From NCBI RefSeq assembly GCF_009738185.1, contig NZ_CP046509.1:1777361-1801360 (forward strand): a stretch of 24,000 bases of DNA. Reading direction: 5' to 3'. Numbering within the stretch: the first letter of the stretch is position 1; the number at the start of each line of letters is the position of its first letter. The translations under genes were made by a program, and so were the position numbers. A model generated the notes under the pieces. That model searched no databases. It was not told the origin of the DNA and was given only the letters and a program-made list of their open reading frames with translations. The DNA comes from Erwinia sorbitola. GTDB taxonomy: Bacteria; Pseudomonadota; Gammaproteobacteria; Enterobacterales; Enterobacteriaceae. Shown here one piece after another: positions 14,306 to 23,835 of this stretch.

Positions 14306-15064
14306 TTAGTGGCTCAGTACATTGAGCATCTCACGCAGCGACTGCACGGCAATCTGCCCCGGAGCCGATGCCTGGCGCGCTGCTCCAAAGGTCATCGCTG
14401 AACCGAACACTTCCCCGGCCAGACGGCTGATCACGCCGGTTTTCCCCATCGACATGGTAATCAGAGGACAGGTGGCGTGTTCCTCTTTCATGGTCAGTGT
14501 GGCATCCAGCAGTACCAGCACATCATGGGGCGACTGCGGCATCACCGCGATTTTCGGCAGGTCAGCACCCAGGGTTTGCATCCGGCAAAGACGGGCAATA
14601 ATCTCCGTTTTACTCGGTGTCTTATGGAAATCATGGTTGCTCATAATCACCTTCACGCCAGCGCTATGTGCCTGGGCGACCAGCGCGCGGATGCGTGGTT
14701 CCTCGTTAAACAGCTCTACATCAATCAAATCCACCAACCCGCTGCGGGCAATCTCGCTATTAAGATTAAAATAGGCATCATCGCTCAGTTCATGCTCGCC
14801 GCCCTCCTTTTTACTGCGGAAGGTAAACAGCAACGGCACCTGCGGCAAAATAGCGCGGACCTGTTGCAGCGCAGCCTTTACGGCATTCACGTCGTCAACG
14901 GACTCAAAGTGGTCAGCGCGCCACTCAATCACATCTGCCTGAATTTCTGCCAGCTGACGGGCATCTTCACTAATGGCGGCCAGTGTGCGTCCTATCAGAG
15001 GAACACAGATTAGCGGTTTGCCTGCGCCAAAAGTGATGTTTTTAACGTTTACGATAGCGGTCAT
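14306..15064 (-). CDS. aroD: 3-dehydroquinate dehydratase, type I
   Basis: 252 aa, the same length as E. coli AroD and colinear with it (EWR.DH..., LLFTFRS.KEGGE, VIMSNHDFHKTP, PKIA.MPQS..DVL.LL.AT, ITMSM.KTGVISRLAGEVFGSA.TFGA...ASAPGQI). The Schiff-base Lys context PKIAVMP is present. Confidence 0.95.
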   Translation of the reverse strand: MTAIVNVKNITFGAGKPLICVPLIGRTLAAISEDARQLAEIQADVIEWRADHFESVDDVNAVKAALQQVRAILPQVPLLFTFRSKKEGGEHELSDDAYFNLNSEIARSGLVDLIDVELFNEEPRIRALVAQAHSAGVKVIMSNHDFHKTPSKTEIIARLCRMQTLGADLPKIAVMPQSPHDVLVLLDATLTMKEEHATCPLITMSMGKTGVISRLAGEVFGSAMTFGAARQASAPGQIAVQSLREMLNVLSH

Positions 15065-15087
15065 AATATTCTCTCTCTGATGGCAGG

Positions 15088-16317
15088 CTAAACCTGCACA
15101 CGATTAATCTGCAAGGCCGCGCTGCGCGCTGCAAGCTGGCGATAGCCAATAAACAGGGCAAGGGCGAAACCCGCCGCTGCAATGCCAACGTCAAACCACA
15201 TAATACTGGCGATACTGGTTTGTGACAGCTTCGCGGTGATCAGCGGAATGGTGAATGTGGCCAGGCTCCCGGCGCTGTAGAAAATACCGGTAGCTTTCCC
15301 TTTGGCGTGTGGGAAGCTCATCGCCATAATCGTCAGACCCAGCTGCATGACCCCACCTGCCGCCGAGAAGCCGATTACAAAGGCGAAGCCAATCACCACC
15401 GGAGGGGTTGGATGCAGGCAGACGGTTATTAGCGCCAGCAGCGAGATAAAGGTATACAACATCAGCAGGTTCACTGAGCTGACGGCCTTTTTCACCAGTG
15501 CAGCGGTCACAAATACACAGGTCAGGGAGCCGACGGTATAGATACTTAGCAGCTTAATCGCCGAGGCGTAGGACATTCCGGCAACAAACTGGCCGTACTG
15601 CGCCAGCCACTGGCTGACCAGGTAGAACGTTGCCATTGAGATATAGCCGTACAGCGTGAAACAGGCGATATCCAGCAGGTTGCTGTTGTTCTGCTGCGGC
15701 TGCGGTGAGGTGCCGGTCTGTTCGCTGGTGCTGATGACCGGTTTTGCCAGCGCCCGGTGATCCGGGAACGGACGTTTCAACAGGTAGATCGCATTCAGCA
15801 GCATAATGGCGGCCGCCACGATGAACGACCAGCCAAACCACAGATCCGCCAGCACGATAGCGCTGATAATAAACGGCAGCAGGAACTGTCCACCTGACAC
15901 GAAAGCTTTGATCAGGATATTAGCGGTGCTGGCTGAGTTGGGGAACGACTCCATCAGTGCCGGGTAGGTGCCGGAATCAAGGAAGCTGTTTGCCATGCCG
16001 GCGAGGAAGCCGAAGGCAAAAGCCGTGGTAATGCTCTGCGAACTGAGAATGCCAAAGAAGAAGCCCAGATAGCACAGCATTCCGAGATAGATAAAAGGCT
16101 TACGGCCAAACTTATCAGACAGCATGCCGGAGATAAACAGCACGACCAGACGGCCAAAACCCAGCGATGAGATCACCACAGAGACCCCGGCGGCGTTGGT
16201 CTGCCACTGCTGTTCCAGGTGAGACATATTGAGGGTCATTAACAGCACCCCCATGCCATGCACCAGATAGTTAAGGTACAGCCCGGCGGCGGTGGGAATG
16301 TAGGTATTTTTTTTCAT
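15088..16317 (-). CDS. ydiN: MFS transporter, YdiN/YdiM family (putative hydroaromatic transporter)
   Basis: 12-TM MFS protein similar to remembered E. coli YdiN (..SDKFGR.., ..GYPALME.FP.., ..FVIGFSAAGG..QLG..). I prefer ATG 16317 (MKKNTY...), which has GAAGG 5 nt upstream. The ORF-track GTG at 16329 abuts the ydiB stop and is an alternative start. Confidence 0.85.
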   Translation of the reverse strand: MKKNTYIPTAAGLYLNYLVHGMGVLLMTLNMSHLEQQWQTNAAGVSVVISSLGFGRLVVLFISGMLSDKFGRKPFIYLGMLCYLGFFFGILSSQSITTAFAFGFLAGMANSFLDSGTYPALMESFPNSASTANILIKAFVSGGQFLLPFIISAIVLADLWFGWSFIVAAAIMLLNAIYLLKRPFPDHRALAKPVISTSEQTGTSPQPQQNNSNLLDIACFTLYGYISMATFYLVSQWLAQYGQFVAGMSYASAIKLLSIYTVGSLTCVFVTAALVKKAVSSVNLLMLYTFISLLALITVCLHPTPPVVIGFAFVIGFSAAGGVMQLGLTIMAMSFPHAKGKATGIFYSAGSLATFTIPLITAKLSQTSIASIMWFDVGIAAAGFALALFIGYRQLAARSAALQINRVQV

Positions 16318-16329
16318 AGATGCCTTCAC

Positions 16330-17193
16330 TCAGAACAGGATGTTTTTGATGTAGTCGACCGGCATTTCTTTCCCTGTCCAGATTTCGAAGGCTGCCGCCC
16401 CTTGCCACAGCATCATGCCTAACCCGTTGACAGTGCGACAACCTTTTTTGCGGGCGACTTCCAGCAACCGGGTTTGCTGTGGCTTGTACACCACATCAGA
16501 GACGATAAGATCGGGGCGCAGGAAGCTCTCATCCGGCAGTAGCATCACGCCTTCAAACGGCTTCATGCCAATGCCAGTCGCATTGGTAAAAATCATGCTG
16601 TCATCGATCTCATTGCGCAGCTTTTGCGTATCGGCAATATCGTAAAGATTTACCACGCAGCGGGTATTGTCCTGGATTTTACGGATTGTGGCCTGCGCAT
16701 TATCCCAGAAGGCGTCACGCTGGTTGAAGATGGAGATTTCGCGCACACCGTCCAGCGCAGCCTGCACACAGATTGCCGTGGCGGCACCACCGGCACCACA
16801 CAGCGTCATTTTCTCGCCGATAATATTGATATTCTCCTCCACCAGCGCACGCATATAGCCCGTGCCGTCGGTGATATGCCCGGTCAGTACGCCGTTATCA
16901 TTAACCACGGTATTCACCGCGCCCACCAGCTGTGAGGCTGGAGAAAGCTGGTCAAGATGCTGACATACGGTAGTTTTATTCGGCATTGAGACATTAAAGC
17001 CACGCAGGTTTAGTGCACGGAATCCGTCGATCACCTCTTTCAGCTCTTTATTGCCCACGTCGAACGCCAGATAGACGTAATCCAGACCAAGATGGGCGAA
17101 AGCCTCGTTATGCATGGTGGGAGAGAGGCTGTGACGGATGGGGGTGGCGATCAATCCAATCAGTTCGGTATGACCAGTGATGCGTTCTGCCAT
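16330..17193 (-). CDS. ydiB: Quinate/shikimate dehydrogenase, NAD(P)-dependent
   Basis: 287 aa, colinear with remembered E. coli YdiB (ELIGL.A.PIRHSLSP.M.N.A, VSMPNK, VGA.NT.VNDDG.L.G..TDGTG, GAGGA.TAI, G.GMLLWQGA..F.LWTGK..P). Confidence 0.93.
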   Translation of the reverse strand: MAERITGHTELIGLIATPIRHSLSPTMHNEAFAHLGLDYVYLAFDVGNKELKEVIDGFRALNLRGFNVSMPNKTTVCQHLDQLSPASQLVGAVNTVVNDNGVLTGHITDGTGYMRALVEENINIIGEKMTLCGAGGAATAICVQAALDGVREISIFNQRDAFWDNAQATIRKIQDNTRCVVNLYDIADTQKLRNEIDDSMIFTNATGIGMKPFEGVMLLPDESFLRPDLIVSDVVYKPQQTRLLEVARKKGCRTVNGLGMMLWQGAAAFEIWTGKEMPVDYIKNILF

Positions 17194-17255: not shown

Positions 17256-19253
17256 TCACGCCAGGCAGCCCATATCTTCCAGAGTGGTGAGCACGTCATG
17301 CCCTTCGCGAACGCCATCAATAATGCGACGTGCCATCACGCTGTCGCCGATGTTCATAACTCTTATCTGCTCGCTGGCCGCCCACTGTTGCAACGCATCC
17401 AGCCCTTGCTGGTTGGCGCGCATACCGAGGCAGACAAAGCCGAAGTCGAAGGGCAGTTCGTGCAGGGCATCGTCTTTCTTCACGCTAAAATGCTCACCAT
17501 GAACCGCCATCAGCCGGGTCTGCATCCACAGCGTGACCTGGTGTTCGTCGAGCATTGTCAGCATTGAGTTTTTGGTGATCAGATCGAGGTCGCGGCCCGG
17601 GGCATCCAGCATTTCTACCAGGGTGACGCGGGCACCGCGTTTGGCGAAAAATTCGCAGACGTCCAGCCCGACAGCACCACCGCCTACGACCACCACGCGT
17701 TTATCTGCGTTGTCGGTAAAGTTGTCGATACCGGAAAGCAGGCCGGTAATGGAGAACACCCGGCTGCCAGGGCGGTCGATAAAGTCCATCAGACCGTTAA
17801 TCGGCGGCAGCAGCGGGGTGGAGCCGGTGGCGTTGACTACCAGGTCAGGAAGAAGGGCGGCGACATCGCTGACGCTGGCATGTTTACCGGTGATCACTGC
17901 AAGGTTGTTCAGCGCGCGCAGGCGGCGTTCCATAAACTGCGGGAACCCGGCAATCCTCTGTTTTTCAGGCAGGCGGGCGATGTCGCGTGCCAGGCCGCCC
18001 AGCTGCGGCTGTGCTTCCAGTAGCCAGGTCTGACAGCCGACTTCGGCGGCGGTGCAGGCTGCTTCCATGCCAGCAGTGCCGCCGCCAATCACCACCACCT
18101 TGAGCGGCCGGCTGACATGGCGCTGCCGGTAAGCATCACCGTGCAGAATATCGGGGTTGATTGAGCAGCGGATGGGGCGTGAACGTGCAATGCGATGGTC
18201 GGCGCAGCCAATATTGCAGGAGATGCAGTGGCGCATCAGGTGCTCCTGACCACTTTGTACTTTATTGACCCACGCCGGTTCGGCGATAAGCCCGCGCCCG
18301 ATGGCCAGCAGGTCGGCGTCACCGCTGGCGAGGATATCTTCTGCAATGGCCGGATTACGGATATTGCCGGCGATCACCGTTGGTTTGCCGAAGCGCTGGC
18401 GCACGTCCCGTGACAGGTAACGTTTCCAGCCGTCGGGCAGATCCATCTGGTCAATCTGTAATTGCAGGGTATCGTTTAATGCCGCTGAGACGTTGAGCAT
18501 ATCCACGTTCTGCTGGCAGTGTTCCAGCAGGGCCAGCATCTCCTGCGGATGATTACCGCCTTCTACAAAGTCATCCATGCTGAAACGCAGGCTGATAGGG
18601 AAGCGGGGACCAACTTTCTCACGCACTTTATCCACCACCAGCCGCACGATGCGCGCACGGTTCTCCGGCGAACCGCCAAACTCATCTTCACGCTGGTTGT
18701 AGATTGGAGAGAGAAACTGACACAGCAGATAGGAGTGCCCTGCATGGATCTCAACGCAGTCAAAACCTGCCTGACGGGCGCGCTGTGCAGCATCACCAAA
18801 TTTATCTACTACCTGATAAATTTCCTCCACGCTCATGGCGCGTGGGATTGTGCCGTTCTTTTTCGAAGGCTGCGTTGAGGAGGAGAGGGGCTGCTGCTGA
18901 TTAAGGCGTGCCGCGTAGGCAGATGCTCCGGCGTGGTTAAGCTGAACCGAGACGCAGGCACCATGCTGATGCAGGCGTTCCGTCAGGCGAAACAGGCCGG
19001 GAATATACTGGTCATTATCAATGCGTAGCTGGGTCGTGCCGTTAGTGGCAAACGGGAAATCAATGCAGACATTTTCAATCGTTATCAGTGCAGTGCCGCC
19101 TTTTGCTCTCAGCGAATAATAATCCAGCTGCTGTTCACTGACTTCTCCATTTAACCCGGCAAAATTAGTTCCCATCGGCGGCATAATAATACGATTTTTT
19201 AAACGCATGCCATTGATGGTAATTGGGGTGAAAAGATGGCGATAACGATTCAT
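17256..19253 (-). CDS. NADH:flavin oxidoreductase of the 2-enoate reductase / 2,4-dienoyl-CoA reductase (FadH) family (OYE-like FMN domain, 4Fe-4S, FAD/NAD(P) domain)
   Basis: I take the start at ATG 19253 (MNRYRHLFTPITINGMRLKNRIIMPPMGT...), with GGAG 8 nt upstream. The OYE motif is HAGHSYLLCQFLSPIYNQREDEFGGS. The Cys cluster is CISCNIGCADHRIARSRPIRC (C-x2-C-x3-C-x11-C). There are two dinucleotide folds, VVVIGGGTAGMEAA and VVVVGGGAVGLDV. The 42 extra codons in the ORF track are AT-rich and have no homology context. Confidence 0.88.
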   Translation of the reverse strand: MNRYRHLFTPITINGMRLKNRIIMPPMGTNFAGLNGEVSEQQLDYYSLRAKGGTALITIENVCIDFPFATNGTTQLRIDNDQYIPGLFRLTERLHQHGACVSVQLNHAGASAYAARLNQQQPLSSSTQPSKKNGTIPRAMSVEEIYQVVDKFGDAAQRARQAGFDCVEIHAGHSYLLCQFLSPIYNQREDEFGGSPENRARIVRLVVDKVREKVGPRFPISLRFSMDDFVEGGNHPQEMLALLEHCQQNVDMLNVSAALNDTLQLQIDQMDLPDGWKRYLSRDVRQRFGKPTVIAGNIRNPAIAEDILASGDADLLAIGRGLIAEPAWVNKVQSGQEHLMRHCISCNIGCADHRIARSRPIRCSINPDILHGDAYRQRHVSRPLKVVVIGGGTAGMEAACTAAEVGCQTWLLEAQPQLGGLARDIARLPEKQRIAGFPQFMERRLRALNNLAVITGKHASVSDVAALLPDLVVNATGSTPLLPPINGLMDFIDRPGSRVFSITGLLSGIDNFTDNADKRVVVVGGGAVGLDVCEFFAKRGARVTLVEMLDAPGRDLDLITKNSMLTMLDEHQVTLWMQTRLMAVHGEHFSVKKDDALHELPFDFGFVCLGMRANQQGLDALQQWAASEQIRVMNIGDSVMARRIIDGVREGHDVLTTLEDMGCLA

Positions 19254-19391
19254 AATATTGGCTCCGTAGCGACTTTTGCCGGGAAATAAATTCGGCTGGC
19301 GGTGAATATCAATAGTAATATTATTGGTATTAATACTACGAGGCGGGAGATGTAATGAATAATGCTTTTTTTTGTGCAATCAATAGAAGAT

Positions 19392-19422
19392 TTCTATAGG
19401 ATTAACAAATAGATCTATAGAA
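19392..19422. promoter_or_regulatory. Inverted repeat in the promoter region of the reductase-ydiB-MFS-aroD operon (candidate operator)
   Basis: TTCTATAG (19392-19399) -N15- CTATAGAA (19415-19422), about 140-170 bp upstream of the ATG at 19253 in AT-rich DNA. Function is not established. Confidence 0.3.
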
Positions 19423-19502
19423 TTTCAGTATAATTAACATTTGTAACCGAAGAGGAACATGCGGCCCTGCGTCAGCGACATGATAGTACTGTTACTATGT
19501 CA

Positions 19503-19529
19503 TTATGCCTGCTTAACTGGCAGGCATAA
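19503..19529 (-). terminator. Hairpin downstream of ydiL (terminator-like, no clear U-tract)
   Basis: 10-bp perfect stem TTATGCCTGC (19503-19512) / GCAGGCATAA (19520-19529) with a 7-nt loop, 27 nt downstream of the ydiL stop codon on the minus strand. The U-run is poor on that strand, so intrinsic termination is uncertain. Confidence 0.4.
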
Positions 19530-19555
19530 GCGTTATTTAATAATAATTCAGTAGG

Positions 19556-19912
19556 TTAGCAGAGCCGTTCCAGCCCGCGAGAGTAAAGTTCAGCAGCCAC
19601 TGACTGATAGGTTTTCCATGCTAAAAGATCTTCGCCCGGTCTGGCCTGTTTGAATTCTTCAAAGGTAGGGAAATATTTCATAGTGTTATTTCCGATACGC
19701 AGGTTAATTTTGTCAATTATGGCGTTCATGTGATGTTGACGTTGAATCAACAACTCTTCAAAGCGGTGGATAATTTTCTCGCTGATCTCTTCTTGCCCCA
19801 ACTCTCTTTTTTTCCACGCTGCGGGATCGTTATCCTTAGCAATATAGCTAGCAGCTTCTTCGATACTGAGAAGGAAAATATGACGTAATGCCTGGAGTTC
19901 TAAATAATTCAT
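19556..19912 (-). CDS. ydiL: YdiL-family (DUF1870, Aca2-like HTH) protein
   Basis: 118 aa, the same length as E. coli YdiL and matching my recollection of it (M..YELQALRHIF......A..IA, ...INNRIGNNTM.(Y/F)FP....F......, W(K)IYQSVAAELY...LERLC). It sits in the syntenic position next to the ydiN/ydiB/aroD homologues. Confidence 0.85.
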   Translation of the reverse strand: MNYLELQALRHIFLLSIEEAASYIAKDNDPAAWKKRELGQEEISEKIIHRFEELLIQRQHHMNAIIDKINLRIGNNTMKYFPTFEEFKQARPGEDLLAWKTYQSVAAELYSRGLERLC

Positions 19913-20199
19913 TTAATCTACTCTCTGTTAATTTTTTCTCACTCTAACATTAATTGCCCATCGCCAAGATGGCAGGGGATGATCTGCGTCATAAACGGGA
20001 TAAATAATGTCTGTGTAAATCAGAGTGATAACGATTTCAGAACAGTGCATAAGTGATGCAGGTTACACATTGCAAAATTAGATGGTCTGCTGAAAAGCGG
20101 ATCCACCGCATGCTGACCTGGGAAAATATAAGAGACCGGGTGACGAGATAACTCCACAGAAGACCCTATCGTGGCAAGAAGTTACGCGAGCGACTCAAA

Positions 20200-20222
20200 C
20201 TGCCCGCAAAATTTACGGGCAG
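20200..20222 (-). terminator. Hairpin terminator downstream of the antitoxin-like gene
   Basis: CTGCCCG (20200-20206) / CGGGCAG (20216-20222) with a 9-nt loop. On the minus strand it begins 25 nt after the stop at 20248-20250 and is followed by TTTGAG, a weak U-tract. Confidence 0.45.
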
Positions 20223-20247
20223 TAGAGGTCTGTGTGACAAAGTCCGA

Positions 20248-20847
20248 TCAGGCGATTGCTGCGGCCATATTTCTTAACTCAGGCAGGCCGCTGAGATCCT
20301 GCTCCAGCACCAGATCCTGGTGAATTTTCAGGATCACCGCTTTCACCACGTCAGAGGTTTTTTTCATCCCCTGTCCCAGCATTAGCTGGTTGAGTTCGGC
20401 CTGCTGACGGTTGGTGATTTTCATCGACAGGCGGCGGGAAGCTTTGGCATTTGCCATATCGCTACTCAAAAAGGATTTCAACTTCTGCTGCGGGTAGCGT
20501 CCGTTTGTCAGCGCATGGAGATACCAGAGAATCAGCACTTTGTTGAAATTTTCATTAAGCGTCGCATCAATTTTCTGCGTTGCTATATAAAGAATATCCA
20601 GGTAGTGCGCAGGTACTCTCACCTCCAGCGATGAGCTGGACTGCTCGAATACCTCTTTGATGCGGGCGTTAGACTGTGCCGGGATAGCGGCAACTTCGTC
20701 ACAGCGGTCACAGACGGCAGCCAGAATATTTTTTACCGTACCGCGTTTATCGCTGAAGTCGACATCGCGCATCCGGTAGGTAGCGGAGGTTTTACCGCAG
20801 TTATGGCACAGTAGCGTCCTTGTCTCACCTTCTTTAACAATTCTCAT
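20248..20847 (-). CDS. Putative antitoxin: MqsA-like N-terminal zinc ribbon fused to a non-MqsA C-terminal region with a predicted ribbon-helix-helix-like tail
   Basis: 199 aa, starting 17 nt after the upstream toxin-like stop, with its own SD (GAGGTGAACAATG). The N-terminus C14-HN-C17 ... C46-DR-C49 mirrors the MqsA CPVC...CVHC zinc ribbon. The C-terminal RRLSMKITNRQQAELNQLMLGQGMKKTSDVVKAVILKI has a strand-helix-helix pattern. No XRE-type HTH is evident. Confidence 0.6.
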   Translation of the reverse strand: MRIVKEGETRTLLCHNCGKTSATYRMRDVDFSDKRGTVKNILAAVCDRCDEVAAIPAQSNARIKEVFEQSSSSLEVRVPAHYLDILYIATQKIDATLNENFNKVLILWYLHALTNGRYPQQKLKSFLSSDMANAKASRRLSMKITNRQQAELNQLMLGQGMKKTSDVVKAVILKIHQDLVLEQDLSGLPELRNMAAAIA

Positions 20848-20864
20848 TGTTCACCTCTTCCTTG

Positions 20865-21161
20865 TTACAGATGCACGCTGATAAAAATCATGTCAGGTTC
20901 CATAAAATAAAATTTTACGTACCACCAACCTCCACATTTCCAGCTACGGCAGATATGCACATCTACCTCAGGATCCTGATGATGCGGGCTACAATGATAC
21001 CCGGTACCGCTGGTTTTCCTGATCAGTTCAGCGACCCAAACGTTATCAACCTCGCCTGTCGCAAACAGGTTTTTAACGTCTATATTCCTGCGAACCTCAT
21101 GATCATATGCGCCTTGATGGAGGCAGTGTATTGCCTGACGTTTCACATCCGTGAGTTTCAT
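20865..21161 (-). CDS. MqsR-like toxin (putative mRNA interferase, RelE-fold superfamily)
   Basis: 98 aa, the same length as E. coli MqsR, with SD AGAGGGACGAAGAAATG. A gapless alignment to remembered MqsR puts Tyr55, the D-V pair near residue 68-70, Tyr81 (WYVKF vs VYLKI) and the terminal hydrophobic strand (MIFISV vs VLIVSF) at matching positions. The toxin-first gene order is the same as in mqsRA. Confidence 0.55.
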   Translation of the reverse strand: MKLTDVKRQAIHCLHQGAYDHEVRRNIDVKNLFATGEVDNVWVAELIRKTSGTGYHCSPHHQDPEVDVHICRSWKCGGWWYVKFYFMEPDMIFISVHL

Positions 21162-21471
21162 TTCTTCGTCCCTCTATTATGTACGCATGAAGACGTACTT
21201 TCAAATGCCTACTATTACGATTCTGGCTGGATTCTAAGGTCTGAGGTGACGAAAAGGAGGGGATGACAGTGAGAAGACGGAAGAGAATTTCAACTTTCAG
21301 AGACGGCTCGCAACCTCGATACAGGCAAAAGTGTGATCTGTACGGAATAGTTACCGATAACAATTAAAATAATTTTAGTTTTTATATCAGATTTTTTTAG
21401 TTAAATTAGTGTGAGTATATTGTAATTATTTGTCAGGTAATAATTGCGCACTTTAACACTAAGGGATACCA

Positions 21472-23835
21472 ATGCTTAACAAGATAACCAGTATTGTCAT
21501 CGCGATTGTCGGGATCGCGACGCTCTACATGGGTACAAAATTGCTGATGATAGGCGGTACGCCGTTCTATGCGCTGATGGGCCTCGGTCTGTTGGTAACA
21601 GCGGTAACACTGTTTATGAAAAAAAGAATCGCGCTGACTCTCTACGCTCTGCTGATGTGGATGGTGCTGGCGTGGATGATTTATGAAGTCGGTTTCGATA
21701 AGTGGCAGTGGATCCCGCGTGGAGACATTTTCGGCCTGATCGGCCTGTGGCTGGCAATGCCATGGGTTGTTCGCCCGCTGTATAAAAATGAAGGGCGGCG
21801 TTTTCATCCGTTCCTCGGTACTACGGTGATTGTCATTGTGGCGCTGGTGGTGGGGATGATGTTCTACGATCCTTTGCCGCAGGCCGGCACCATCACCACA
21901 CAGCGTCAGAGTAGCAATACTGATGTGGCTGGCAATGACTGGACGGCCTACGGCGGCACCGCCAATGGTTTGCGTTTCTCCAGTCTGAAACAGATCACTA
22001 AAGATAACGTCAACAAGCTGGATGTTGCCTGGATCTACCATACGGGTGACGTGCGTGACGCCGAAAAAGATGCCACCGAATACACCTTTGAAGCCACGCC
22101 GCTGAAGGTGAATAACAGCGTCTATATCTGTACGCCGCACAATGAAGTGCATGCGCTGAATCCAGAAACCGGAGCGCTGAAGTGGAAATATCAGCCAGCG
22201 AAGGATGCTTCTTATCTGCAACAGCATCAGACCTGTCGTGGCGTGAGCTTCTACGATGGCGGTGATGTGCAGGGTGATACCACAGCTGGTCAGCCAGCGC
22301 TGTGTCGTAAACGTATTTACAACGCCAGTAATGATGCAAAATTGATCGCGCTGGATGCCGATACCGGCAAGCTGTGTGCTGATTTTGGCAAAAATGGCGT
22401 GGTAGATCTGCATACCAATATGGGCCCTGTACGCCCGCATGCACTGATGCAGACAGCGGCACCGCTGGTGGCGGGTAATCTGGTTATTGTTGGCGGTTCA
22501 GTCATGGACAACGGCTATAACACAGGCAATCCGTCAGGAGTGATTCGTGCCTATGATGCGATGTCAGGTCGCCTGGTATGGAACTTCGATCCGGCCAACC
22601 CGGAAAATACCCAACCGATCGCCGCTGACCAGAGCTATCCGCAGGATACGCCAGTGGCGTGGGGCACGCTGAGTGCCGACCTGAAAAATGGTCTGGTGTA
22701 TGTGCCGTTTGGCAATGCCTCGCCGGATGAAGTGGGAATGAAACGTGACGCGAACAGCAACACGGAAAAATTCCGCGATACGCTGGTGGCGTTGGATCTG
22801 AAAACCGGCAGCTTTAAATGGCGCTTCCAGTCGTCGAAAAATGACCTGTGGGATCGTGATAATCCATCGCAGCCTTCACTGCTGGATATTGACTACCAGG
22901 GGCAGAAACAGCCAGTGGTAATCCTGCCGACCAAAACCGGCAACCTGTTTGTACTTAACCGCCTTACCGGTCAGCCGGTATATCCGATTAATCAGGTAGA
23001 TGTCTCTACTCAGGGCATCAGCGGTGAAAAATATTCCCCGACACAGCCTGTTTCGGCGCTGAATTTTATTCCGGCACCGCTAAATGAGAAAGCGATGTGG
23101 GGCCTGACGCCATTTGATCAGATGGCCTGCCGTATCGACTTTAAGTCACTGCGCTATGACGGTAATCCGTGGACGCCAGCGACGGAAGCTGGCTCAATTA
23201 TCTTCCCGGGTAATATCGGCGTATTCAACTGGGGTTCCGTGGCGGTTGATCCCGAGCGTCAGATTCTGATCGCCTCTCCGGTGCGTCTGGCTTACAAATA
23301 TAATCTCATCAAACGTTCAGCGGCCACCGCCGACAAGCGTCTGTTCAGCAAAGATGGTACGCCGTACTGGAATGAGAACTTTGAGGGTGATTACGCCATT
23401 CATATTCAGCAGCTCTCCTCCAGCCTGGGTATTCCGTGTATTGCACCACCCTGGGGTCGTATGGTGGGTGTCGATCTGAAAACCGGTAAAACTGAATGGC
23501 TGCGCCGCGTTGGCACCACCAAAAACCTCAATACCAGCTTCCTGCCGGGCCGCTTCCCGATTGGTTTCCCGATGGGAATGGTGGCTCACGGCGGGCCGTT
23601 AACCACGGCGGGTGATGTGGTGTTCCACGGTGCAACGGCCGATAACTTCTTCCGCGCTTACGACGTAAATACGGGTGAACTGCTGTGGCAAACTGAACTG
23701 CCAGCAGGTGGCCAGGCGACGCCTGCTACCTATATGGGCAGCGATAAGCAGCAGTATGTGGTTATTGCCGCGGGTGGACATGGTTCGCTGGGCACTAAAG
23801 CGGGTGATTCAGTAGTGGCTTTTCGTCTGAAGTAA
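21472..23835 (+). CDS. Membrane-bound PQQ-dependent dehydrogenase, glucose/quinate/shikimate (Gcd/QuiA) family
   Basis: 787 aa with about five N-terminal TM helices, followed by a PQQ beta-propeller. It is colinear with remembered E. coli Gcd (DW.AYG....G.RFS.LKQI...NV..L..AW...TGD; CRGVS(F/Y); SGVIR(A/G)(Y/F)D; KTGN.FVL(N/D)R; GGQATP.TY....KQYVVI.AGGHGS.GTK.GD). Substrate (glucose or quinate) cannot be decided from sequence by eye. Confidence 0.9.
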   Translation: MLNKITSIVIAIVGIATLYMGTKLLMIGGTPFYALMGLGLLVTAVTLFMKKRIALTLYALLMWMVLAWMIYEVGFDKWQWIPRGDIFGLIGLWLAMPWVVRPLYKNEGRRFHPFLGTTVIVIVALVVGMMFYDPLPQAGTITTQRQSSNTDVAGNDWTAYGGTANGLRFSSLKQITKDNVNKLDVAWIYHTGDVRDAEKDATEYTFEATPLKVNNSVYICTPHNEVHALNPETGALKWKYQPAKDASYLQQHQTCRGVSFYDGGDVQGDTTAGQPALCRKRIYNASNDAKLIALDADTGKLCADFGKNGVVDLHTNMGPVRPHALMQTAAPLVAGNLVIVGGSVMDNGYNTGNPSGVIRAYDAMSGRLVWNFDPANPENTQPIAADQSYPQDTPVAWGTLSADLKNGLVYVPFGNASPDEVGMKRDANSNTEKFRDTLVALDLKTGSFKWRFQSSKNDLWDRDNPSQPSLLDIDYQGQKQPVVILPTKTGNLFVLNRLTGQPVYPINQVDVSTQGISGEKYSPTQPVSALNFIPAPLNEKAMWGLTPFDQMACRIDFKSLRYDGNPWTPATEAGSIIFPGNIGVFNWGSVAVDPERQILIASPVRLAYKYNLIKRSAATADKRLFSKDGTPYWNENFEGDYAIHIQQLSSSLGIPCIAPPWGRMVGVDLKTGKTEWLRRVGTTKNLNTSFLPGRFPIGFPMGMVAHGGPLTTAGDVVFHGATADNFFRAYDVNTGELLWQTELPAGGQATPATYMGSDKQQYVVIAAGGHGSLGTKAGDSVVAFRLK

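Follow-up and report, generated by a model that had tools for sequence, protein, structure and literature searches.

The genome of Erwinia sorbitola contains, on the minus strand of a 24,000-nucleotide stretch of contig NZ_CP046509.1 (the whole of which is referred to here as the window), a two-gene cassette of about 1.15 kb that is probably an autoregulated type II toxin-antitoxin (TA) operon of common ancestry with mqsRA. Its first gene codes for a protein of 98 amino acids (aa) with an MqsR-like predicted fold, likely to act as a ribonucleolytic toxin, and the second encodes a 199-aa protein in which a zinc domain would neutralise the toxin and a tandem ribbon-helix-helix (RHH) region would repress the operon. 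Two of the features by which type II systems are recognised are found here: the small genes are adjacent, co-directional and co-occur across genomes, and a predicted DNA-binding domain, the tandem RHH, is accompanied by a candidate operator in the module's own promoter. An earlier note on this DNA, made from its letters alone, had proposed an MqsRA-type module with a new antitoxin architecture, and its coordinates for the two co-oriented open reading frames (ORFs), 17 nt apart, are exact. No published account of a zinc domain fused to a tandem RHH was found, and the family is both widespread and unannotated.

The link between the 98-aa protein and MqsR comes mainly from its predicted structure. 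The AlphaFold model (pLDDT 90.4, pTM 0.82) is composed of a helix at residues 3-16, short strands within 19-27, a second helix at 40-48 and strands at 55-59, 67-75, 78-88 and 91-97. When the model was compared by Foldseek with 350,542 chains of the Protein Data Bank (PDB), the sole significant family was MqsR of the MqsR-MqsA complex, as the earlier note's idea of an MqsR-like fold would lead one to expect. Chain 3hi2_B matches with an E value of 3e-4, a probability of 1.0, a TM score of 0.66 and an rmsd of 3.2 Å over 94 columns at 15% identity, and the next match is a designed protein with an E value of 0.29. An MqsR alignment was also assembled from real family members for profile-profile comparison with hhalign. 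This brings residues 39-98 of the family into line with MqsR 38-97, so that the register with MqsR claimed in the note, including Tyr55 and Tyr81, stands for this part of the protein, although the register slips by one residue near position 89; sequence methods leave the first 38 residues unaligned.

The conserved residues of the family suggest where the active site may lie. Across an alignment of 104 sequences L14, R24, K30, N31, H60, W80, Y81, K83, Y85, S95 and H97 are near-invariant and H69 is kept in 86 of the 104. Mutagenesis has identified Tyr81 and Lys56 as essential residues of MqsR (PMC9636575), and the counterpart of Tyr81 is found in 99 of the 104 sequences, in an alignment to MqsR that has a probability of only 27.7%. 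The note had drawn attention to altered catalytic residues, with a His at the position of MqsR Lys56, and hhalign does pair H56 of the window protein with K56; Lys56 is not conserved in the family and His60, His69 and His97 are. We infer that the 98-aa protein has the same scaffold and cleft as MqsR with an altered chemistry. If the model is correct, the protein is a probable endoribonuclease that retains the strand carrying Tyr81 and Lys83, and the pattern of conservation suggests that it would use His60, His69 and His97 where MqsR has Lys56 and Lys96.

The 199-aa protein appears to be made of three parts, a Cys4 zinc domain, a tandem RHH and a short C-terminal helix. The model (pLDDT 84.7) has a beta-rich zinc domain, with its strands within residues 9-54, followed by a helix at 61-69. 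The first RHH unit is formed by a strand at 71-79 and helices at 80-93 and 100-114, with R77, P79 and D84 each at least 90% conserved, and the second by a strand at 137-145 and helices at 146-158 and 164-180. The zinc motif, C14xxC17-x28-C46xxC49, keeps all four cysteines without exception in an alignment of 26 sequences, distant members among them. The note had likened this motif to the N-domain of MqsA. Comparison of the antitoxin alignment by hhalign with a single MqsA sequence gave only 3%. With a broader antitoxin alignment, and with MqsA represented by five sequences taken from mqsRA loci, residues 11-64 were placed against MqsA 1-55 at a probability of 69.8% (E 4.2e-5); the two CxxC pairs coincide, as does an R-D-x-x-F/Y motif. 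Homology between the zinc domain and the MqsA N-domain is thus moderately supported. In MqsA-type antitoxins truncation has shown that the zinc domain alone neutralises MqsR (PMC10440598), and by analogy it is most likely the homologous zinc domain here that binds and neutralises the toxin. The C-terminal helix is an alternative candidate for the toxin-binding element.

Membership of the MqsA family is a separate matter from homology of one domain. Pfam MqsA_antitoxin (PF15731) matches residues 14-90 of the 199-aa protein at an E value of 0.008, with 16.7 bits against a cut-off of 30, and TIGR03830 matches at 0.02, with 14.6 bits against a cut-off of 61.8. The MqsA_antitoxin match is likewise sub-threshold in 13 of 29 family members, the best having an E value of 7.8e-4, and by the family-model criterion the 199-aa protein is not in the MqsA family. 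The zinc-ribbon family DUF5817 also matches below threshold, and PDB sequence searches with the single sequence and with a 29-sequence profile returned neither MqsA nor any other relative. No helix-turn-helix (HTH) family was matched in Pfam or NCBIfam, nor when the 29 members were compared with Pfam, which agrees with the suggestion in the note that the HTH half of MqsA has been replaced. The replacement differs somewhat from what had been described, in that the RHH-like segment is indeed present and forms two units and a terminal helix, not a single unit at the end of the protein.

The best PDB matches to the 199-aa model are chains E, F and G of the F-plasmid relaxosome, which were identified as TraY by sequence lookup. 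The C-terminal 112 residues superpose on 9f0x_E over 112 columns (E 4.7e-3, probability 1.0, TM score 0.64 on the target), and VirC2 and AcaB are weaker matches. F TraY is a monomer that contains the whole RHH-dimer fold in one polypeptide (PMC12117103), and on the evidence of the model the two RHH repeats here would similarly fold as a single-chain pseudo-dimer. That TraY is the best fold match also raises the idea that the 199-aa protein is a TraY- or MobC-type relaxosome accessory factor, with the palindrome described below forming part of an origin of transfer and the module mobilising its island. In keeping with this, Pfam MobC_2 gives a sub-threshold match to residues 131-174 (E 0.008) and does so in 4 of 29 antitoxin-family members, and in Citrobacter koseri a MobA/MobL relaxase gene lies about 2.3 kb away from the pair, with a TraD-like gene also close by. 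However, the window, Serratia, Vibrio and most other loci have neither relaxase nor transfer genes in the vicinity, every lineage has the palindrome at one fixed place, between the -35 and -10 of the module's own promoter, and neither a zinc domain nor an MqsR-fold partner has a role in known relaxosomes. A relaxosome function is consequently considered very improbable.

The two genes are consistently found together, and in several phyla. A genome scan, with one genome taken per species, gave 41 loci with a relative of the 199-aa protein, from Erwinia, Serratia, Pantoea, Pectobacterium, Vibrio, Marinomonas, Oceanospirillum, relatives of Geobacter, Sericytochromatia, Methylococcaceae, Acinetobacter, Martelella and Phenylobacterium. 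The large gene is a near-full-length match (at least residues 1-192) at 40 of these, the exception being L041 with a partial match to residues 1-146. The status of the small gene could be assessed at 39 loci, as the contigs of L022 and L033 end too soon, and 36 of the 39 have, immediately upstream of the large gene and co-oriented with it, a homologue of the 98-aa gene that is either intact or disrupted. The distance from the end of the small gene to the start of the large one is about 10-30 nt at most loci and 74-175 nt at L038, L040 and L041. Five distant toxin homologues (P0095, P0211, P0203, P0183 and a copy on an Acetobacter plasmid) were also examined, the first three being 30-34% identical to the window protein, and every one is followed by a full-length antitoxin homologue of 201-212 aa (hmmsearch E 1e-16 to 3e-61). 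The toxin-first order is retained in all family members examined, down to about 30% identity, so both the order and the co-occurrence anticipated in the note hold in these members.

When one of the two genes decays it is the small one. Among these loci it is disrupted or missing in 8 genomes, and for the large gene there is no clear case of either. It is intact at 31 of the 36 loci, and carries nonsense codons at L019, L027 and L034 and frameshifts at L015 and L031; it is gone at L037 and L039 and reduced to a remnant at L032. Vibrio mangrovi has the antitoxin alone. The toxin of Serratia liquefaciens has an Arg in place of His97 and, its stop codon being lost, reads in frame into the antitoxin. 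Inactivation or loss of the small gene is repeated and independent, with the antitoxin gene remaining full length. Decay of one gene while its partner persists would be expected of a toxin and its antidote, and is indirect evidence for such a pair. As further observations, the small gene is also absent at L048, and among the nonsense changes TAA has replaced the codon of Y19 in Oceanospirillum beijerinckii and that of K49 in an Oceanospirillaceae metagenome-assembled genome. The Serratia liquefaciens sequence (L049 6686-7600, and also L050) has a QIDKEFK linker and amounts to a natural toxin-antitoxin fusion, and the antitoxin cluster to which it belongs, P0019, has 126 members.

The region upstream of the 98-aa gene has a single sigma-70-like site, and the spacer of this promoter is filled by the palindrome GTACG-N8-CGTAC. 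This has one exact match in the 24-kb window. Among the related loci the exact palindrome is found at 31 of 45, in each case no more than about 110 nt ahead of the toxin start and at no other place in some 470 kb, with Erwinia, Geobacter and Acinetobacter all among the carriers. The Sericytochromatia and Methylococcaceae loci have variants that differ by one base, and the GTAC-to-GTAC spacing is always 14 nt. The upstream regions are built alike at all loci, with a TTGACT-like hexamer, GTACG, eight bases, CGTAC and an A/T-rich -10; in nearly all of the related loci a TTGACT, TTGAAA or TTGCAA hexamer abuts the palindrome. Two copies of the palindrome are found at Vibrio, Marinomonas, Alteromonadaceae and Acinetobacter loci. 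It is present even at L042, where the toxin is 34% identical, and the solo-antitoxin locus L039 keeps a one-mismatch version, GTACG-N8-TGTAC. That an operator of 10 bases has been preserved within the promoter in different phyla is a strong pointer to autorepression by the predicted RHH protein, and the RHH region most likely binds the palindrome between the -35 and -10 and represses the operon. As a tandem RHH would be an asymmetric pseudo-dimer, two molecules probably occupy the two inverted half-sites.

The promoter also bears on how antitoxin could be kept in excess from an operon in which the toxin gene comes first. Each gene had been credited in the note with its own Shine-Dalgarno (SD) sequence, and both are present, GAGGGA 8 nt ahead of the ATG of the 98-aa gene and GAGGTG 6 nt ahead of that of the 199-aa gene. 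The functional relevance of the first is in some doubt, as the -10 is only 14 nt from the ATG and, in distant members such as L058, L051 and L043, abuts it (e.g. as CGTAC-ATG). The toxin mRNA leader is thus probably very short or absent, and GAGGGA may lie at or before the transcript start. A toxin gene that is first but has such a leader, followed by an antitoxin gene with a good ribosome-binding site, would explain an excess of antitoxin.

A number of observations weigh against a toxin-antitoxin reading of the pair. None of the 104 relatives of the 98-aa protein matches PF15723 (MqsR_toxin) at E<=0.1, and PDB sequence searches with the single sequence, a 10-sequence profile and a 104-sequence profile found neither MqsR nor any other relative. 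The hhalign match to MqsR is weak (probability 27.7%, E 6.4e-4), and the essential Lys56 has no conserved equivalent, as position 56 varies among S, E, T, R, Q and K. The structural case is built on AlphaFold models, that of the 98-aa protein from 10 sequences only, and in Foldseek the zinc domain matches the MqsA N-domain (3ga8, 3hi2_C) weakly, with a probability of 0.35-0.54. No sequence similarity was detected by hhalign between RHH repeat 1 and repeat 2, and the duplication is therefore seen in the model alone. Some of the disrupted toxin genes come from metagenome-assembled genomes, in which sequencing error is possible, and no paper on an MqsR-like toxin paired with a zinc-ribbon/RHH antitoxin was found in the literature.

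Several of these points would suit a pair without toxicity, in which the 199-aa protein acts as an RHH transcription factor controlling its own operon and its 98-aa partner is harmless, for instance a co-repressor or sensor, and shares no more than an old fold with MqsR. Similarity to MqsR is at noise level in sequence, the catalytic Lys56 is not conserved, and a DNA-binding architecture with a promoter palindrome is suited to any autoregulator. What such a pair would not lead one to expect is the dense, active-site-like set of invariant residues (R24, K30, N31, H60, H69, Y81, K83, S95 and H97), or that nonsense, frameshift and deletion events should fall on the small gene alone while its partner persists, or a patchy spread on plasmids and islands that resembles that of addiction modules. 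It is for these reasons that a purely regulatory pair is regarded as quite unlikely and a TA operon is preferred.

Within the TA interpretation a more adventurous version can be entertained, although it is held only tentatively. The 98-aa family may represent an RNase lineage of its own built on the MqsR scaffold, in which a His-based acid-base chemistry (His60, His69 and His97 together with Tyr81) has replaced that of Lys and Tyr. Such an enzyme could cleave something else, for instance one particular tRNA or rRNA, or depend on the ribosome for cleavage. The toxin message would be leaderless and the repressor a monomeric, pseudo-dimeric RHH protein of which two copies read the inverted repeat. 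On plasmids and islands such a module might act in addiction or abortive infection.

The module appears in several genomic settings. In Citrobacter koseri and Enterobacter it is found on an island with an integrase, H-NS, TraD and a MobA/MobL relaxase, whereas in Serratia it forms a lone islet amid housekeeping genes, where the toxin gene has been missed by gene callers. Rhizobium and Acetobacter plasmids carry it at about 30% identity, annotated as "hypothetical protein". No match to the module DNA was found in 5,426 E. coli genomes. Erwinia toletana has a genuine mqsR (P0234, 69% identical to E. coli MqsR) as well as a homologue of the 199-aa antitoxin (P0022), and the two families thus appear to coexist as distinct systems. 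In the best explanation the module is horizontally mobile and self-contained.

Mobility of this kind, and the fact that many type II TA systems defend against phages (PMC10440598), might suggest that the system is primarily one of anti-phage abortive infection, a role that would be layered on the TA mechanism and would not replace it. The module lies near a PIN_3 gene at L042 and near a gene for an Abi family protein on the Acetobacter plasmid. At most loci its neighbours are housekeeping genes and not defence islands. PADLOC gives no match for the toxin and only HEC-08, at an E value of 0.023 and over the zinc-ribbon stretch, for the antitoxin, and the module proteins have no match in 50,697 phage records or in the BFVD viral fold library. 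The abortive-infection idea of the earlier note accordingly finds no support in PADLOC, phage records or gene context, and a mainly anti-phage role is thought unlikely.

The closest known system to the proposed TA operon is MqsR/MqsA of E. coli (PDB 3HI2 and 3GN5; PF15723 and PF15731). In both systems the toxin gene is first and encodes 98 residues, the predicted toxin fold is the same, with Tyr81, Lys83 and a C-terminal Ser-x-basic strand in register, the antitoxin starts with a Cys4 zinc domain, here aligning to MqsA residues 1-55, and a palindromic operator, a candidate in this case, is placed within the module's own promoter. The differences are as marked. The toxin described here is about 15% identical to MqsR and is undetected by any MqsR family model, Lys56 is not conserved, Lys96 is replaced by an invariant His, and His60 and His69 are additionally conserved. 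The antitoxin, at 199 aa compared to 131, lacks the XRE-type HTH and has instead two RHH repeats and a terminal helix. The operator of MqsA is a palindrome of the ACCT-N-AGGT type whereas the candidate operator here is GTACG-N8-CGTAC.

Known MqsA architectures consist of a zinc domain and HTH, or of a zinc domain, HTH and Panacea domain (NetFlax, PMC10440598). The latter, found in MqsR:PanA, show the MqsA-type zinc domain to be a neutralising unit that is portable and open to combination with other antitoxin domains (PMC10440598), but they keep the HTH and add Panacea to it, whereas here a tandem RHH takes the place of the HTH; moreover, the MqsR:PanA toxins are recognisable members of the MqsR family. 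F-plasmid TraY (9F0X chain E) shares with the C-terminal region of about 112 residues two beta-alpha-alpha units in one chain that superpose with the model. TraY is, however, a relaxosome accessory protein at oriT without a zinc domain or toxin partner, it is 12% identical to the 199-aa protein, and no sequence model joins the two. With RelBE, ParDE, CcdAB and FitAB the module would share an RHH antitoxin that autoregulates its operon, as is predicted here, and a toxin in the RelE-like fold superfamily, and with HigBA it shares the toxin-first order. Classical RHH antitoxins have one N-terminal RHH per chain, dimerise, and neutralise through a disordered C-terminal tail, in contrast to the doubled RHH in the middle of a single chain, preceded by a folded zinc domain, that is predicted for the 199-aa protein.

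One consequence concerns annotation, since the family is present on chromosomes, plasmids and islands and is everywhere "hypothetical", a gap that naming it would fill. If the proposal is correct, the MqsA-type zinc domain would be shown to be portable and able to be joined to a wholly different DNA-binding fold, and the protein would provide a rare case of a single-chain tandem RHH serving as an antitoxin repressor. The near-invariance of the candidate operator across phyla offers a ready system for the study of RHH-DNA recognition, and the His-for-Lys replacements are a natural experiment on the evolution of the unusual MqsR active site. The apparent coexistence of mqsR with the module in Erwinia toletana poses the question of cross-talk. 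The TA paradigm itself is unchanged, as the shuffling of antitoxin domains is already well documented.

With respect to family models and family size, the 98-aa protein has no match in Pfam, NCBIfam, PADLOC or PHROGs, even at E<=10, so that the Pfam check suggested in the note was negative. Genuine MqsR homologues all carry PF15723, and by the family-model criterion the 98-aa protein is not in the MqsR family (Pfam PF15723 / NCBIfam). A word-indexed search gave 13 clusters for the toxin family and 56 for the antitoxin family, and an exhaustive profile search raised the former to 319 cluster representatives at E<=1e-3, of which 188 are at E<=1e-10. The toxin family therefore comprises at least 319 clusters (at 50% identity), from Gamma- and Alphaproteobacteria, Geobacter relatives and Sericytochromatia. 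Every named entry of both families is "hypothetical" or "uncharacterised". The Serratia assemblies of L049 and L050 have no gene called over the 98-aa ORF even though it is present, and the PLSDB gene table, which is incomplete by design, lists no 98-aa gene on the Rhizobium etli plasmid L052, where the ORF matches in two frames. Such skipping of the ORF by gene callers is frequent and leads to under-representation of the toxin family in protein databases, with its 13 clusters compared to 56 for the antitoxin.

Some of the homologues of the 98-aa protein are longer, and their N-terminal extensions have no match in Pfam. P0183 (L059 1315-2112), for example, is a protein of 265 aa with about 170 extra N-terminal residues ahead of a toxin domain that covers profile positions 18-98; it is followed by an antitoxin homologue of 205 aa and may be a fusion or have a mis-called start. 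P0150 was rejected as a member of the toxin family, as this 1013-aa protein contains about 15 near-identical repeats of about 67 residues and its E value of 1.6e-17 is the spurious product of many weak repeat matches.

Table 1. Features of the module in the window, and residues of the 98-aa family that correspond to MqsR.
Feature	Position	Strand	Basis or remark
Whole module, approximate extent	20175..21330	-	Downstream similarity to E. rhapontici ends at about 20175; upstream shared sequence on the PQQ dehydrogenase side ends at about 21330
-35-like hexamer TTGAAA	21199..21204	-	Only sigma-70-like site upstream of the 98-aa gene; 10/12 matches, 17-nt spacer
Operator candidate, palindrome GTACG-N8-CGTAC GTACGTCTTCATGCGTAC	21181..21198	.	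Fills promoter spacer and first -10 base
-10-like hexamer CATAAT	21176..21181	-	14 nt upstream of the 98-aa gene ATG
98-aa putative toxin, MqsR-like predicted fold	20865..21161	-	ORF
17-nt intergenic spacer with GAGGTG ribosome-binding site of second gene	20848..20864	-	ORF spacing
199-aa putative antitoxin	20248..20847	-	ORF
Putative zinc-binding domain, MqsA-N-like, antitoxin residues 1-60 (C14, C17, C46, C49)	20668..20847	-	Model, hhalign
First predicted RHH unit, antitoxin residues 71-114	20506..20637	-	Model; part of TraY match
Second predicted RHH unit, antitoxin residues 137-180	20308..20439	-	Model; TraY match
Conserved C-terminal helix L-x-E-L-x-x-x-A-A-A-F, antitoxin residues 188-198	20254..20286	-	Model, alignment
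Terminator-like hairpin past antitoxin stop	20199..20223	-	Folding energy -22.4 kcal/mol, z-score -3.5
98-aa family Y55 = MqsR Y55			hhalign
98-aa family position 56 (variable; His in window) ~ MqsR K56			hhalign
98-aa family K/R72-P73 = MqsR R72-P73			hhalign
98-aa family Y81 = MqsR Y81			hhalign
98-aa family K83 = MqsR K83			hhalign
98-aa family S95 = MqsR S94			hhalign
98-aa family H97 = MqsR K96			hhalign

The borders of the module (Table 1) were set by comparison with Erwinia rhapontici and other Erwinia. E. rhapontici is the nearest genome found, with 89% identity in the 199-aa protein and 95% in the PQQ dehydrogenase. In four Erwiniaceae the module adjoins this same PQQ dehydrogenase gene and differs in its opposite flank. 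The terminator-like hairpin is kept in Erwinia rhapontici and Erwinia sp. AnSW2-5, and has a short T-run that left it unflagged by a consensus scan.

In the window the module is flanked downstream by ydiL on the same strand (Pfam Aca2_YdiL, E 5.8e-38) and upstream by the gene for a PQQ dehydrogenase of 787 aa on the opposite strand (PF01011, E 8e-209). The G+C content falls to 0.39-0.50 across 19000-21600, from 0.53-0.64 in the flanks, in agreement with the AT-richer block that the note had placed between these two genes. The gene ydiL itself (an Aca2/YdiL-like HTH gene at 19556-19912) lies in the AT-richest part of the block, where the G+C content is about 0.40, and in E. rhapontici ydiL does not adjoin the module. 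Between ydiL and the module there are about 260 nt (19913-20175) to which nothing has been assigned. In E. coli the small RNA (sRNA) gene rprA lies beside ydiL. An RprA-like sRNA was considered for the region between ydiL and the module and was rejected, as 19850-21480 gave no Rfam match, RprA included, at E<=1; in the whole window there is none at the gathering threshold.

Farther out in the window are genes for an Oxidored_FMN/Pyr_redox reductase, a ydiB-like shikimate dehydrogenase and a transporter of the MFS family. The gene order is only loosely like that of the E. coli aroD-ydiB-ydiN-ydiM-ydiL-rprA-ydiK locus, and when the flanking ydi genes were compared with E. coli no match was obtained by megablast and only ydiB by sensitive blastn. 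The regions 14306-17193 and 21472-23835 contain homologues of ydiB (quinate/shikimate dehydrogenase) and of an MFS transporter, the membrane PQQ dehydrogenase and, in the position of aroD, an ORF of 252 aa. The presence together of ydiB, MFS and PQQ dehydrogenase genes suggests a quinate/shikimate utilisation cluster that is rearranged relative to the E. coli ydi locus. Finally, the 707-aa ORF (17256-19379) is listed with a TTG start that gives it an unlikely N-terminal extension of 42 residues; its true start is probably the ATG at 19253 (MNRYRHLF), since the Oxidored_FMN match begins at residue 7 of that version.

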